DNA of 64,000 nucleotides from positions 145 through 64,144 of the forward strand of contig JALEWG010000139.1 of the NCBI GenBank assembly GCA_022788065.1, read 5' to 3'. Positions 45,142 to 58,001 of the stretch are shown in pieces; within the stretch, counting starts at the first letter, position 1; the number at the start of each line of letters is the position of its first letter. Under the pieces are notes generated by a model. The model had not been told where the DNA came from and did no database searches. It saw only the letters and a program-made list of their open reading frames with translations. The position numbers were made by a program, and so were the translations under genes. The stretch comes from Lachnospiraceae bacterium. GTDB lineage: Bacteria; Bacillota; Clostridia; Lachnospirales; Lachnospiraceae.

Positions 45142-46224
45142 TCAGATCCTCTCGCAGATCAGATTTCCCATCTCGGCAGTCCCGACTTTTGTCATACCTT
45201 CCGCCATAATATCCACTGTGCGGTAACCGTCCGCAAGGACTTTGCGCACCGCATTTTCGATGGCGTCTGCCTCTTTGTCCAGATCGAAGGAGAACCGGAG
45301 CATCATAGCTGCGGACAGGATGGTCGCAATGGGGTTTGCAATTCCTTTTCCCGCAATGTCCGGAGCGGAGCCGTGGCTCGGTTCATAGAGACCGAATTTC
45401 CCTTCATTGAGGCTGGCAGAGGAAAGCATTCCGATAGAGCCTGTGATCATGCTGGCCTCATCGGACAGGATGTCGCCGAACATATTCTCTGTCAGGATCA
45501 CATCAAACTGTCCCGGGTTCATAACCAGCTGCATAGCACAGTTGTCAACCAGCATGTTTTCAACAGTCACCTCAGGATAGTCCTTTGCCACCTCTGCAAC
45601 GACTTTTCTCCAGAGTCTGGAGGAATCCAGAACATTGGCCTTATCGACGCTTGTGACTTTTTTCTTTCTCTTCATTGCGATATCGAACGCCTTGACCGCA
45701 ACACGGCGGATCTCATTCTCACTGTAAACAAGCGTATCGGTCGCCTGCATCACGCCGTTTACTTCCTCGGTACGGCGTTCACCGAAATAAAGGCCGCCGG
45801 TCAGCTCCCGTACGATCACCATGTCAAAGCCGTCGCCGATGATCTCCTTCTTTAAGGGGCAGGCATCAGCCAGACCGTCATAAAGATAAGCCGGACGGAT
45901 ATTGGCAAACAGGTTCAGGCCTTTTCTGATGGCTAAAAGTCCCGCCTCCGGTCTCAGGTTGGGAGCCACATCATACCAGCGGGAATTTCCGACATTTCCG
46001 CCGACCGCTCCTAGAAGAACGGAATCGCTGTTTCTGGCAGTCTCCAGCGCTTCTTCCGTTAACGGTACTCCGTAGGTATCAATGGAGATTCCTCCCATGA
46101 GAACCTCTTCATAGTGAAAAGTGTGGCCGTAAACCGTTCCCACTCGGTCCAGCACTTTTTTTGCTTCTGTCACGATTTCCGGTCCGATTCCGTCGCCTGA
46201 GATCGTCGCGATTCTATATTCCAT
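45142..46224 (-). CDS. leuB: 3-isopropylmalate dehydrogenase family enzyme
   Basis: [25 protein letters not shown] and MLSSASL motifs. ATG at 46224 follows GGAGGA. Confidence 0.9.
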
Positions 46225-46396
46225 TTTCGATTCCTCCAATCCGTAGGTTCTGATCTGTAGTCTGTCTATAATCTTACCCTATCCCCGCATCATTTTCAAT
46301 CATAACCTGTTCCATATGCCATACATGTTTTCTATTTTATTCATAACCCGATGTTATAGGAACAAAGCGGACAAGTCCGTTTCGAACTTCCTGAAT

Positions 46397-46413
46397 CCCT
46401 CAAGCCTTGAGGG
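46397..46413. repeat. Perfect palindrome CCCTCAAG-C-CTTGAGGG
   Basis: Read directly. 8-bp arms. Confidence 0.9.
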
Positions 46414-46428
46414 ACTTGCTTCGCTTTG

Positions 46429-46483
46429 CGCGCCAGATGCAGACTGCCGTAGGCAGTCAAACTTCATATTGCATCTGTGCGCA
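46429..46483. repeat. Nested inverted repeats: CAGATGCA/TGCATCTG enclosing GACTGCC-GTA-GGCAGTC, with GCGC extension
   Basis: Outer arms at 46434-41 and 46470-77. Inner hairpin at 46442-58. A further 4 bp pair with a one-nt bulge. Confidence 0.85.
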
Positions 46484-46497
46484 TCCGATGCGGAGCA

Positions 46498-46537
46498 TTT
46501 TTATGCAATAGGAAAGCACTTTCCTATTGCATAAAAA
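46498..46537. repeat. 40-nt perfect palindrome TTTTTATGCAATAGGAAAG-CA-CTTTCCTATTGCATAAAAA
   Basis: 19-bp arms, 2-nt centre, read directly. An imperfect outer helix (46487-95 with 46550-59) encloses it. Confidence 0.9.
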
Positions 46538-46585
46538 CGCCCCATAGCACTTCCGAATCTGCAGCGCCGGGACGTTTCAAAAGGT

Positions 46586-46655
46586 GTAACAGGGGAACGC
46601 TCTTCTGTAAGGATTTTCGGAGGTATCCTGTAAGCCAAAAGAGCATTCCTGTTAC
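46586..46655. repeat. 70-nt imperfect inverted repeat GTAACAGGGGAACGCTCTT...AAGAGCATTCCTGTTAC with inner AGGAT/ATCCT helix
   Basis: Arms at 46586-604 and 46639-55, with one bulged G and one C/A mismatch. Confidence 0.85.
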
Positions 46656-46688
46656 GCAACGATAATAACACAAACGCTCTTTTTTTGC

Positions 46689-46712
46689 CCCACCTTTTCG
46701 GGTGGGTTTTAA
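46689..46712 (+). terminator. CCCACC-TTTTCG-GGTGGG hairpin followed by T-rich tract on the PLUS strand (abuts the luxR-type stop codon)
   Basis: Stem at 46689-94 and 46701-06, then TTTTAATATTTTT. On the minus strand the hairpin is followed by GCAAAAAAA, so the orientation favours a plus-strand transcript. Confidence 0.45.
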
Positions 46713-48103
46713 TATTTTTCCTTTTCGGATGTCTGAACCCAGACGGCAAGTCCGCCTTCCTGATGATTTTCCATGGCATTCTTCAGTTCAATACGGTTTT
46801 TGATCCCCAGCTTTTTATAGACGTTTGCCAGATGATATTTCACGGTATTGGGACTGACAGACAGATACTCCCCGACCTCATCATTCTTCAGTCCGATCGC
46901 CGCAAGTCTGGCAACCGCCTGTTCCTTTTCAGTGAGAGACTCCCGGAAGACAGCTTCAGATGTAATTTTTCGTATTTCAGAAAGTTTCCCGGTATAACAC
47001 CGGTGTGTATTTCTGAAGTGCTCGGCATTTTCCTTTCCGAACCGTTCCATAGCTTTGTTCAGATCTTCTCCCAGCATCGGAAGGAATTCACAGGGGAACA
47101 GCCATAATCCATCCGGAACCAGGATATCCATGGCCTGTTCCAGGCATTCCTGTTCCTTCCTCGCGTCACCCAGAGCCTTCCACGCACTGGCCCGGTACAG
47201 CCACAGATATGCGTCGTAAAGCGGCATCCAGTCCAGGCCATAAAGACTGGAAGCCATATCAGCCGCATTGATGGCCAGAGAGTACTGACCGCTGTGCAGA
47301 AGGTATTCCATATGTGCGCTCCATGCCAGCGGAAACACCACATGTGATATGGAATCATCCACGATCCGGAATCTTCCTCCGTCGGAAACCGCACCGAATT
47401 TTCCCTCCTGGATCCACCTCGGAACATCCGAGATCAGGCCGACCGCCATGCGGACTCTGGTCTTCAGGCAGGCAGCCGTCTCCCTCACGACACGGTTCTC
47501 GCTGTTCTGAAGCCTGCAGATCATATCATACGACCTGCTCCATTCGCCCAGGCTCTGTCTGTGGATCGCAATGCGGACCCTGTATTCGGCCGAGCAGACA
47601 AGACTCAGCCCGTTCCCGGATTTTTTTGCGTTTCCGTCATTTTTCAGCAGAAAGCTTTCTGCCTTTTCAAACTCGCCCCGATAGAAAGCGAGCTGAGCCT
47701 GGTACAGCTGATCATGCCGGTTCCCGCCGCAAAGGGAATCATAGAGCTCCATCATATGCTCTAACTTTCGTCCCGTTTCGTCAGCCGTTCCCGGTGTCTG
47801 AAGATACCAGTAGATCGGGCTGTACATATCCCGCTTCATACTGGTGCACGGAGGCACCACCTCCGACTTCCCATGAATCAGCAGCCTGGCTTTCTCCAAC
47901 AGCGGAATCGCCCGGTCCGGTTCCAGATAGTGGCACATCGCCATTAAAAGGTTCCACTCTCCTTCACCCTCCGGCCATTCCCTGTTGTTTTCTAACTCAT
48001 CCTTCACCTCCATCAGCAGGCCTTTCGCTTCCGTCAGATCCTGCTCTTTCATACTTGCAAGGGCTCTTTTAAATTGCGAAAAGAGATCCTTCTTCATCCA
48101 CAC
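46709..48103 (-). CDS. LuxR-family transcriptional regulator (helical/TPR-like N-terminal region + C-terminal LuxR HTH)
   Basis: C-terminus LTEKEQAVARLAAIGLKNDEVGEYLSVSPNTVKYHLANVYKKLGI is a GerE/LuxR HTH. Own promoter TTGACA-17-TACCAT lies upstream. Confidence 0.8.
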   Translation of the reverse strand: MWMKKDLFSQFKRALASMKEQDLTEAKGLLMEVKDELENNREWPEGEGEWNLLMAMCHYLEPDRAIPLLEKARLLIHGKSEVVPPCTSMKRDMYSPIYWYLQTPGTADETGRKLEHMMELYDSLCGGNRHDQLYQAQLAFYRGEFEKAESFLLKNDGNAKKSGNGLSLVCSAEYRVRIAIHRQSLGEWSRSYDMICRLQNSENRVVRETAACLKTRVRMAVGLISDVPRWIQEGKFGAVSDGGRFRIVDDSISHVVFPLAWSAHMEYLLHSGQYSLAINAADMASSLYGLDWMPLYDAYLWLYRASAWKALGDARKEQECLEQAMDILVPDGLWLFPCEFLPMLGEDLNKAMERFGKENAEHFRNTHRCYTGKLSEIRKITSEAVFRESLTEKEQAVARLAAIGLKNDEVGEYLSVSPNTVKYHLANVYKKLGIKNRIELKNAMENHQEGGLAVWVQTSEKEKY

Positions 48104-48176
48104 AAATATACTCCTCTCTGTGCGTTATTACAGTTTCTGTTATCCCTATGGTATTAGGTGTTAAGAAAAATGTCAA

Positions 48177-48226
48177 GAAAAAAAGAAACTGTCATACGGT
48201 TAAAAATTTAATCCGTATGACAGTTT
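48177..48226 (-). terminator. Intrinsic terminator of glsA
   Basis: 14-bp perfect stem AAACTGTCATACGG/CCGTATGACAGTTT (48186-99 and 48213-26), followed on the minus strand by a U-run. Confidence 0.8.
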
Positions 48227-49171: not shown

Positions 49172-50761
49172 TTACTGCAGGAAGATAACTCCTCCCGGTC
49201 CCAGCGGAAGATTCAGGAAATACCAGATAGCCAGCTGTATGATCCAGATAACCGCAAAGGATACGGAGAACGGGATCATATTGGCAATGAGGGTACCGAT
49301 ACCCACATTTTTATCATACTTGCGCGCAAAGCTTAAAGCGATCGGCAGATATGCGTTTAACGGAGTCAGCGGATTCGTCAGAGAATCGCCGATCCGGTAT
49401 ACAACCTGAATGAACGCCGGATTGTATCCGAGAAGCATTAACATCGGCACGAAAATCGGAGCAAGGATCGCCCATTTTGCAGATGTGGAACCGATCAGCA
49501 GGTTGATCAGGCATGTCAGCACAATAATTCCCAGAACCAGCAGCATGCCGGTAAGTCCCACGTTGCTTAAGAACTCCGCTCCTTTAATCGCGATGATGGT
49601 TCCTATTTTAGACACTGAGAAGAAATTTGTAAAGATGGAAATAAAGAAGCACATGAACACATAGCTTCCCATCTCCGCAAAGCCCTGGCTGATGTCAGCC
49701 CATACATCTTTATCTTTTTTATATTTTCCGGTTCCGATACCATAAAAGAGACCCGGAACGAAAAGGAACAGTGTCACAGTAAATACGATACCTTTGGAGA
49801 ACGGGGAAGCACTGGCTGTAATGGAGCCGTTCTCATCTGCCAGGATCGCCGTCGGCCCGAAGATCGGAAGGGAGAGAAGGAGGACTGCGATCAAAAGAAG
49901 CAGTGTCGCAATACCTGCCATTTTAAGACCCTTGTTTTCCTCCGGAGACAGTTTTTTTCTTTCCTCGCCAAAGTTGAATTTGGCAAGTTCCTCCTTGGAA
50001 ATCGGGAAACGCGGAACCAGTATTTTTCCACCAGAATCGTGCCTGTGATCGTGAGCACGACACAGGATACCATCAGGAAATACCAGTTGATCGCGATGGA
50101 TTCCGAATAAGTCGGGTCGATCATCTGCGCTGCAGGCTCAGTGAAGCCGTATGCCAGCGCATCGGAAAGTCCAAGGATCAATGTTGGCACAGAAGCCGGC
50201 GGAAACCGACGCAAAAGCCGTGTAGAGGCCGAGCAGCGGGTGACGACCGACGGACATGAACAGTACGGCGGCCAGCGGCGGCAGAACAATGTTTCCGGCG
50301 TCTCCGGCCACATTCAGGTTAATTCCAAGGAATACAACCACGCAGGTAACGATCCAGCCCTTGGCTCCGCCGAGGAATTTTTCCATGACGGCTACCAGGA
50401 ATCCGCTCTTTTCCGCAAGGGAGGAGCCGACAACCGCTACCAGAACCATGCCGAGAGGCGCAAAGCCTGAGAAATTGGTGATGACATTGGTCCACAGGTA
50501 TTTGATACCTGCAACGGAGAGAAGGTTAAATACCTGAACGGTGGAACCGTCCGACGGATTGACAGCCGTTACGCCCAGCATGCTGAACACAGCTGAAAGA
50601 ACGATAACGATAACTGCCAGTCCCAGGAACATAGTGATCGGATCCGGGAGTTTATTTCCCATACGCTCGATGGCGTCGAGGAACCGGTCCAGTCCGCTTT
50701 TCTTTACTTTTACAGCTTCATTTTCTTTTTGCTCATACGATCGCCCTTTCTTTTCTGTCAC
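49172..50761 (-). pseudogene. abgT: AbgT-family (p-aminobenzoyl-glutamate-type) transporter split over three ORFs by two frameshifts
   Basis: ORFs 50138..50761 and 49172..49921 share a frame. The homologous sequence detours through the frame of ORF 49891..50313 between about 50182 and about 50025. Confidence 0.75.
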
Positions 50762-57730: not shown

Positions 57731-58001
57731 AAAAAAGGCTGATGATCCCGAAAGGGACCGTCAGCCGGCGTTACCACCCAATTTAGCATTCCCGCCATCA
57801 CGGGAAGCTCTCCTCTTTTTCCTTTAACGCAGGAATACGCTGTGCTTATCAGGATCCGCTTCACACAAGACTCCGGGGCCGGTTCAACCGTGCGCACATG
57901 GAGAGTTGCACCTCCCTCTCCTCTCTGGAATGCCGCCTTCGCTTACTTTTCCCTTTCAGTGTCTTTCTCATTATTGCCTGTTTGATGATTGCTCATACAT
58001 A
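57731..58001 (-). promoter_or_regulatory. T-box riboswitch leader of proS (candidate specifier CCG) with terminator
   Basis: Minus-strand T-box core TGGGTGGTAACGCCGG (57779-57765). The terminator GGCTGA..TCCC-TTTC-GGGA..TCAGCC + T6 is at 57766-57731. Stem I elements are AAGTA ... CAGAGAG ... GAA-CCG-G, with CCG at 57882-57880. Confidence 0.8.

Follow-up and report, generated by a model that had tools for sequence, protein, structure and literature searches.

Small non-coding repeats predicted to fold into stable stem-loops whose pairing is conserved are exemplified by the pneumococcal SPRITE, BOX and RUP, all of which are shorter than 200 bp, reach tens of copies per genome and are confined to a narrow clade; SPRITE, with its 18-bp duplex between AAAA and TTTT, looks like a Rho-independent terminator and is located near gene 3' ends, and BOX is built of modules that can be present, absent or multiple (Croucher et al. 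2011, PMC3049150). REP elements are 20-40-nt imperfect palindromes tagged GTAG or CGTC (PMC3733652). Here we compare with these systems a stretch crowded with palindromes (46320-46712) in a Lachnospiraceae genome; by the window we mean the whole stretch of DNA that was analysed, 64 kb in length. We consider it quite probable that this region is a composite of three minus-strand features, namely an RNA structure conserved where a LuxR-type regulator gene ends (element B), a hairpin with its T-run at 46538-46575, and one copy of a multi-copy repeat (element A).

Element A is modular like BOX, occurring in solo-head, mini, full and expanded forms, but it has no sequence similarity to SPRITE, BOX or RUP, it belongs to the Lachnospiraceae, and in its asymmetric head-body-tail layout we found no terminal inverted repeats (TIRs) of the type seen in miniature inverted-repeat transposable elements (MITEs). 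Moreover, SPRITE, BOX and RUP are enriched between convergent genes, whereas element A stands immediately after existing terminators and is co-oriented with them. With REP, BIME and REPIN sequences it shares being an extragenic, palindromic, multi-copy repeat, often downstream of genes and subject to compensatory change. Unlike REP, it is about 140 nt long, contains five helices and carries no GTAG or CGTC tag in our alignment. Near the 86 sites described below we found no cluster of RAYT or Y1 transposase open reading frames (ORFs), and the ORFs flanking these sites included no recurrent gene family that could represent the autonomous partner of a MITE. Since neither the TIRs and autonomous partner of MITEs nor the tag and RAYT gene of REPs were found at these sites, we file element A among the small interspersed structured repeats.

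IS200/IS605 elements end in imperfect subterminal hairpins. The IS200/IS605-derived PATE elements resemble element A in having end hairpins, in being oriented and non-coding, and in inserting beside a short motif; they differ in that no associated TnpA or TnpB was found for element A, in that its head palindrome is perfect, and in the single 8-bp direct repeat that we observed. Class C (IIC) group II introns, which Robart, Seo and Zimmerly reportedly found in 2007 to insert downstream of intrinsic terminators in the same orientation, share with element A the target preference alone: element A is about 140 nt long and has no ribozyme domains, GUGYG 5' end, domain V or reverse transcriptase ORF, and hence is no intron. 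Element B, for its part, is like T-box, PyrR and ANTAR leaders in that one segment can pair upstream or downstream and the downstream hairpin is followed by a U-run. Unlike such leaders, it is placed where a regulator gene ends and not in a recognized 5' leader, it lacks a T-box core and any Rfam match, and the genes after it are separately promoted. Neither Rfam 15 nor full-text literature searches yielded a description of a structured repeat family adjoining terminators, and among small interspersed structured repeats the terminator-homing habit of element A is unusually clean.

Element A, a dispersed structured repeat

A sequence-only reading had taken the whole region for a single, locus-specific folded RNA of nested helices, read from the plus strand and ending in a terminator near 46712. 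The dyads it described are all present and lie far beyond chance (fold z = -10), and its helices are real, non-random and selected for pairing; what did not hold is that they form one RNA, because homology breaks at about 46537/46543 and again at 46359. Between these breaks, and just upstream of them on the minus strand, lie the following features.

46359-46537, minus strand: element A, a copy of a dispersed Lachnospiraceae structured repeat (about 175-180 nt); holds palindromes 1 to 5 and is read from 46537 to 46359
46498-46537, 5' head of element A: module P1, the perfect 19-2-19 palindrome TTTTTATGCAATAGGAAAG/CTTTCCTATTGCATAAAAA (palindrome 5, perfect 19+2+19, arms extendable to 25 nt at 46492-46543)
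46477-46496, minus strand: linker GCTCCGC-ATCG-GATGCGCAC with a small hairpin, placed by the R1 alignment (palindrome 4, GCATC-C-GATGC, 46481-91)
46434-46477, minus strand: helices P3 (AGATGCA/TGCATCT) and P4 (GACTGCC-TAC-GGCAGTC), together palindrome 3
46434-41 with 46470-77: outer part of palindrome 3, CAGATGCA pairing with TGCATCTG
46442-58: inner part of palindrome 3, GACTGCC-GTA-GGCAGTC
46363-46428, minus strand: helix P5 (CAAAGCG/CGCTTTG), then TTCC; loop expanded by 52 nt
46397-46413: palindrome 2, CCCTCAAG-C-CTTGAGGG
46373-46389: palindrome 1, AAGTCCG/CGAACTT, with one mismatch
46538-46575, minus strand: host hairpin ACGTCCC...GGGGCG, then a T-run (46533-46537), which element A adjoins

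The covariance model R1, built from 43 copies of other genomes with the window left out, matched 46346-46539 on the minus strand over its full length (model positions 1-150; 80.1 bits, E 1.8e-14), and on the plus strand it matched the palindrome alone (52.8 bits). The head, TATGYAATAGGAA-loop-TTCCTATTRCATA with its flanking T-run and A-run, is present at 46498-46537, and GCGC in the linker (46479-46482) pairs with GCGC at 46430-46433. P3 and P4 of the window correspond to the TGCGGCG/CGCCGCA and GTCG/CGAC helices of other copies, with compensatory changes at all seven and all four pairs, respectively. Palindromes 1 and 2 sit in a 52-nt insert in the P5 loop according to the R1 alignment, and among all the loci collected this insert is confined to contigs of the window species; judged by these alignments, the two palindromes are a lineage-specific expansion of the last hairpin of element A. 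The possibility that the expansion is itself a nested second repeat was rejected, as the collected loci held no further copy of it. The 40-nt palindrome is the longest inverted repeat of the 64 kb, and its 19-mer arm is found at this sole site in the window, with none expected by chance. On the minus strand, 46350-46545 folds to -95.1 kcal/mol as compared with -54.1 ± 4.1 for shuffled sequences (z = -10.1). An imperfect helix at 46487-95/46550-59, which had been proposed to enclose the 40-nt palindrome, spans the boundary between inserted repeat and host sequence and is not conserved in other copies.

A Roseburia plasmid matched the palindrome region alone, with the compensated variant ATGTAAT...ATTACAT; taken with the homology of contig L004, described below, which starts exactly at the outer edge of the palindrome, this made the palindrome region look like a repeat. 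A degenerate form of the palindrome occurs at 86 sites in a collection of species-representative genomes, where about two would be expected by chance by our estimate. Almost all of these sites are in Lachnospiraceae, including Roseburia, Faecalicatena, Kineothrix, Butyrivibrio, Muricomes and many metagenome-assembled genomes, and single genomes hold at least nine (SUG1225), at least eight (Roseburia CAKRDK) or at least seven (F. contorta and RUI455). The same non-coding module is attached to the palindrome at 51 of the 86 sites, on exactly one side and never on both. Palindromes 3 to 5 are conserved modules of this dispersed, REP-like family, an outcome, holding for most of the region, that the sequence-only reading itself had named as refuting an element peculiar to this locus.

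In alignment A2 the canonical unit of about 140 nt consists, in order, of a T-run, P1 (TATGTAATAGGAA-loop-TTCCTATTACATA), an A-run, CGCTCCG..GGATGCGCAC, the long-range helix P2/P3, the small hairpin P4, GAGA, P5 and TTTGTTCT. The block CGCTCCG..GGATGCGCAC is conserved across copies, and canonical P5 is an 8-bp stem with a CAAG-type tetraloop that is followed by TTTGTTCT, giving element A a tail of hairpin and T-run that resembles an intrinsic terminator. Across 57 full copies, standard pairs fill 91.8% of the pair cells, as compared with 37-53% when the controls are slid; double-sided changes are present in 30 of the 40 base pairs, and none of 500 shuffles reaches any of these measures. The head palindrome is compensated from T-A to C-G in 12 of the 57 copies, and in one copy (L015:73-229) it is wholly different yet fully compensated (AATGGGCTGGGAAA/TTTCCCAGCCCATT). 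Solo heads of about 40 nt, mini forms of head plus linker, and full units coexist, and truncated, decayed and tandem copies are common; in the tandem arrays of L061, L070 and L075 the next head begins directly after the T-run of the preceding tail.

Element A appears to be highly selective about where it lies. A stable, host-specific hairpin ending at a T-run was found within 40 nt upstream of 46 of 58 full copies, with a mean minimum free energy (MFE) of -14.3 kcal/mol as compared with -6.0 for shuffles, and on these predicted folds the hairpins with their T-runs are intrinsic terminators. Of 33 copies with crude ORF calls, 22 have a co-oriented gene upstream and 26 have one downstream. The first base of one full copy (L020:5108-5330) directly follows a tRNA gene, so that a tRNA acceptor stem with a T-run can also serve as a landing site. 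The host hairpin of the window has an MFE of -16.6 kcal/mol with 0 nt between stem and T-run, and it is kept in L109/L110 (93.8%) and partly in L113, which have no element or only remnants of one.

Comparison with relatives locates the insertion. At the orthologous site the sister species L109/L110, whose LuxR protein is 88% identical, reads ...GGGGCGTTTT-AAAAT-TATAACGACAGGTTATGG... without the block of about 175 nt, the sequence after AAAAT starting with TATAAC. The window instead reads ...GGGGCGTTTTT, then the block ATGCAATAGG...CCGCTTTGTTCC, then TATAACATCGGGTTATGA..., which places the inserted block from 46359 to about 46533/46537; relative to the sister species, the aligned sequences thus mark this copy as an insertion. 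A short, decayed copy occupies the same spot in L113/L117 (the 85% species), and an R1 scan of L109 and of the 50-59% relatives gave no match. Upstream of the palindrome, L004 differs wholly from the window, with an OpuA-type ABC transporter and a T-box, and its homology to the window begins at 46543. That T-box has a Tyr specifier and natively precedes tyrS, and we therefore rejected L004 as a natural T-box-leuB arrangement; L004:3343-3745 joins a tyrS T-box leader to a leuB copy, with the crossover within 21 nt of identity in the palindrome. Two contigs of the same species as L004, L098 and L099, have flanks that are 99.8% identical. In L099 the Tyr-specific T-box terminator ends in ...CTTTTTTGTGCA, directly followed by CGTTCC... 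and tyrS, with no element. In L098 (232-312) the tyrS T-box terminator and the ribosome-binding site (RBS) are separated by a mini-element of 47 nt, which comprises the head and the linker hairpin, together with an additional TTTGTGCA that forms an 8-bp direct repeat. At this tyrS site, the 9 nt TGCACAAAA match TTTTGTGCA, the right arm of the head with its A-run being complementary to the T-run target.

Element A has no coding capacity. The earlier judgement that the region belongs to no known RNA family, with T-box, tmRNA, SRP, RNase P and 6S named as absent, agrees with Rfam 15: at gathering thresholds for the whole window, at E up to 10 for the region, and at E up to 1 for seven canonical copies and seven orthologous loci, nothing matched the window region, the copies or the loci except miRNA-hairpin noise. 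The 25-mer of the window variant had no match in a scan of JGI metagenomes, nor did the palindrome in 2.9 million IMG/VR contigs. Separately, the repeat is present at 76-95% identity in 36 GenBank virome records labelled 'Bacteriophage sp.' (including MT835472 and MT835478), most likely because these assemblies contain bacterial DNA. In L001 (NZ_CP135163.1) the 'hypothetical protein' WP_075681193.1 (13-360) overlaps a full copy (289-438) and is probably a spurious gene call.

Element B at the end of the LuxR-type gene

The remaining dyads form a second structure, which has a different evolutionary history from the repeat.

46577-46713, minus strand: element B, a conserved RNA structure present once, at the end of the LuxR-type gene, comprising hairpin 6 and the final hairpin
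46689-46706, minus strand: H1, the final hairpin CCCACC/GGTGGG
46666-46683, minus strand: segment A, AAAAGAGCG..GUUA
46637-46654, minus strand: segment B, UAAC..CGCUCUUUU
About 46611-46628, minus strand: invariant apical GGAUACCUCCGAAAAUCC
46586-46607, minus strand: segment C, ..AAGAGCG..GUUAC
46586-46655: hairpin 6, a long hairpin

Element B is kept in every orthologous locus, down to those with LuxR proteins only 53-59% identical and including L122 (alignments A6 and A7). Two pairings of segment B are mutually exclusive: A:B, an antiterminator, and B:C, the long terminator hairpin that is hairpin 6. In B:C, 95.5% of the cells are paired and five pairs are compensated. The two helices of A:B are paired throughout (100%), and the two compensated pairs among them involve the B positions that are also compensated with C. 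Such joint covariation of all three segments is the mark of terminator and antiterminator helices that exclude each other. Every standard cell that departs from Watson-Crick pairing, 14 in all, is G-U on the minus strand and none is A-C; the RNA of element B is accordingly the LuxR-sense, minus strand. On that strand a U-run of 6-8 follows the long hairpin in L118-L124 (CUUUUG in the window), and an A-run, which is a T-run on the plus strand, precedes H1 in all relatives. The minus-strand fold of 46574-46712 is below shuffles (z = -3.95). Model R2, made for element B, has a single match at each LuxR locus and none elsewhere in the window or in about 700 kb of other Lachnospiraceae DNA, and a JGI metagenome scan with the invariant loop returned no match.

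With a shared segment, at least 95% pairing and a downstream U-run, element B has the structural make-up of an intrinsic terminator with an antiterminator, and its predicted shape is that of an attenuator, the actual switching being inferred. Segment B would pair with upstream A or downstream C, and the structure would thereby end, and perhaps meter, transcription out of the regulator gene ahead of the separately promoted leuB-serC-serA genes. It is possible, although we think it the less probable course, that element B does no more than terminate the LuxR-type gene, as any intrinsic terminator would, the A:B pairing being incidental. A long hairpin and U-run on the sense strand after the stop codon would fit such a terminator, as would the conserved promoter that leuB possesses downstream. 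A plain terminator would not explain why nucleotide conservation exceeds that of the protein, with the 18-nt apical loop and H1 both invariant and segment A conserved, and it would be unusual for A to covary with B where B covaries with C. As a candidate attenuator, element B is compact, well conserved and close to amino-acid biosynthesis genes.

Explanations for the palindrome cluster

Family membership, dispersal, covariation, fixed orientation behind terminators and polymorphic copies of element A are all observed directly. To account for them jointly, we lean towards a non-autonomous element that is moved in trans, whose head is recognized, whose target is a T-run, and whose tail keeps it near-neutral and recreates the target. 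The layout of the family is an AT-flanked, perfect hairpin head of 17-19 bp, a linker, a three-helix body and a terminator-like tail with T-run. A putative enzyme recognizing the hairpin head would move the element, which would land, co-oriented, in or just after the T-run of an intrinsic terminator. Its own terminator-like tail would make element A nearly neutral at the landing site, and because that tail recreates the element's own target, tandem arrays would be explained as well. Active transposition, and any benefit of element A to its host, we can only infer.

Several observations weigh against this account. Only one copy of element A is present in the 64-kb window, the census covering contigs of other genomes, and in the window both the tail T-run of element A and the U-run of element B are degenerate. 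Among the ORFs flanking the 86 sites, no transposase or other enzyme could be linked to the copies; in all-versus-all clustering, the 1,819 ORFs of these loci grouped into nothing but generic paralogues, namely ABC-F ATPases and one further family. In full copies a locus-specific target duplication was not detectable (matches averaged 5.02 nt for a copy's own flanks and 4.98 nt across copies), and the 8-bp direct repeat at the tyrS site fits slippage deletion as well as insertion. The L004 junction may be an in vivo recombinant or an assembly chimera. Finally, G-U pairs in the helices of element A (42) barely outnumber A-C (31), such that wobble pairs are uninformative as to strand; this balance leaves RNA or single-stranded DNA (ssDNA) as the functional molecule, and the family could consist of decaying relics. 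Set against the 14 to 0 of element B, the near-equal counts suggest selection on propagating master copies, possibly as DNA hairpins.

The compensatory changes, the terminator-like tail and the co-oriented genes (26 of 33 downstream and 22 of 33 upstream) would also suit a host-functional RNA module instead of selfish DNA, such as a portable terminator or insulator, a 3'-end stabilizer or a small RNA, retained where it serves the host and multiplied by duplication or recombination, not by transposition. For the closest analogues, REP and SPRITE, a role in termination or in the stability of mRNA has been put forward (PMC3049150; bioRxiv 10.64898/2026.03.23.713779). We regard such a module as unlikely, since terminators already precede the copies and would make a terminator role redundant, since presence and absence are polymorphic within a species and between sister species, and since truncated, decayed and tandem copies are common; there is also no promoter within element A, and the similar G-U and A-C counts argue against strand-specific selection for RNA on single copies. 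To an origin from IS200/IS605-type elements, in the manner of PATE or REPIN, with ssDNA moved by a Y1 HUH transposase or RAYT, we give a similarly small chance. Hairpins at both ends, fixed orientation to the target, insertion right after a short T-rich motif with no locus-specific target-site duplication in full copies, and helices that are Watson-Crick on both strands would all suit that origin, and the L109 lineage may have lost element A cleanly. Yet none of the 86 sites has a Y1 transposase or RAYT gene nearby, the head palindrome is both long and perfect, and the 8-bp direct repeat at the tyrS site is not made by that mechanism.

Far less probable is the single plus-strand non-coding RNA (ncRNA), antisense to the LuxR 3' end, that the sequence-only reading had favoured. 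A terminator-like site does score at 46689-46706 on the plus strand, the T-run after H1 on that strand is present in all relatives, and the plus-strand fold of 46574-46725 is also below shuffles (z = -2.47). But the region comprises two unrelated pieces of differing history, 46359-46537 being a dispersed repeat, and the strand evidence runs the other way: R1 scores higher on the minus strand, which also folds better, and the 14 wobble cells of the conserved part, G-U on the minus strand only, would be A-C on the plus strand. The proposed plus-strand terminator fares no better, as the H1 stem gains a C-A mismatch on that strand in L121, L122 and L123/L124, and in the window the supposed T-tract is simply the last LuxR codons (EKEKY*) read in reverse. 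The reading had itself found no convincing plus-strand promoter, and we found none either. It is just as improbable that the palindromes bind protein as DNA, serving as operators through which the LuxR-type regulator or some other dimeric factor controls leuB. A perfect dyad of 40 bp with a promoter downstream of it and a GerE-type regulator gene beside it would invite that idea, but the same palindrome occurs at unrelated loci of many genera, always with the same non-coding module, and it is absent upstream of leuB in L109 and L118-L123 despite a conserved regulator and promoter; the conserved operator-like dyad is another one, at 46343-46357.

Two further candidates were tried and rejected. 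A TIR-bounded MITE does not fit, as both arms are at the 5' end in all copies, and the arm-like sequence that only about 10 of 57 copies show past the 3' end is most simply taken for a partial tandem copy. Nor does a pair of DNA uptake sequences (DUS) or uptake signal sequences (USS), with 25 stray arms in 668 kb against 89 palindromes; at least about ten of the stray arms prove to be degenerate palindromes or else partial tandem copies, the remainder being isolated 9-mers.

Returning to a non-autonomous element moved in trans, a bolder version of it is conceivable, if rather improbable: element A may represent a new class of structure-guided, terminator-homing element, and element B a new attenuator or riboswitch-like sensor coupling LuxR-type transcription to leuB-serC-serA. 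The right arm of the head with its A-run, being complementary to the T-run, would then direct integration into single-stranded or cruciform DNA. If true, this would be a functional convergence with group IIC introns, in a 140-nt package delivering a portable terminator. Given its strict target choice, element A would in any case be a tractable case for studying how mobile DNA recognizes terminator structure. Its hosts (Roseburia, Faecalicatena, Kineothrix and Butyrivibrio among the Lachnospiraceae) are dominant members of the gut and rumen flora, and little of their non-coding DNA has been charted. The element accounts for broken contigs, and for possible mis-joins, in metagenome assemblies of these species, such as those of L006-L011 and L104-L108, which end within or beside the repeat; it gives rise to spurious 'hypothetical protein' calls, of which WP_075681193 is an example; it can insert into riboswitch leaders, as between terminator and RBS in the tyrS T-box leader; and its copies provide dispersed homology for rearrangements.

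Gene setting and neighbouring features

The interval 46240-46708 is flanked by a minus-strand gene pair, a GerE/LuxR-type regulator (46709-48103) and leuB (45142-46224), with serC and serA after leuB on the same strand. The order of LuxR-type gene and leuB, and the wider synteny of glutaminase, LuxR-type gene and leuB-serC-serA, are kept in relatives; L122 is an exception, with serC instead of leuB downstream of the LuxR-type gene. Metagenome contigs with an identical LeuB or LuxR protein show the same arrangement as the window, and many of them (L006-L011 and L104-L108) stop inside the palindromes. The stretch had been described as gene-free, and it is: its three short ORFs have no Pfam match, and ARAGORN finds no tRNA or tmRNA in it. 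Between leuB and element A the following features lie outside elements A and B.

46271-46358, minus strand: leuB control region outside the inserted element, kept in all leuB-type orthologous loci
46271-46299, minus strand: leuB promoter-like site TTGAAA-17-TAAGAT, conserved in relatives
46343-46357, minus strand: dyad ATAAC-N5-GTTAT, conserved in all leuB-type orthologous loci
Within 46294-46358, minus strand: direct repeat GGTTATGA, which with the dyad lies upstream of the -35 of the leuB promoter and overlaps it; kept in every leuB-type orthologous locus

The promoter-like site had already been recognized in the sequence-only reading. The dyad and the direct repeat are, by position and conservation, candidate operators, perhaps for the adjacent LuxR/GerE-type regulator.

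On the other side of the regulator gene, a second long palindrome with 20-nt arms (48186-48226) lies directly 3' of the glutaminase stop codon. It is followed by CTTTTTTTC on the minus strand, which makes it an ordinary intrinsic terminator, and next after it comes a promoter-like TTGACA-17-TACCAT for the LuxR-type gene (48110-48180). Further upstream, an AbgT-family transporter gene (49172-50761, minus strand) is split into three ORFs of 249, 140 and 207 aa, as compared with a single gene of 519-521 aa in relatives, and 179 bp of the window (49901-50079) are missing from contig L002; from the sequences, the split gene would be either a frameshifted pseudogene or an indel polymorphism. A T-box leader unrelated to the palindrome cluster (57750-57968, minus strand, 95.1 bits) precedes a gene of 477 aa, presumably encoding a prolyl-tRNA synthetase, which its N-terminal sequence resembles.

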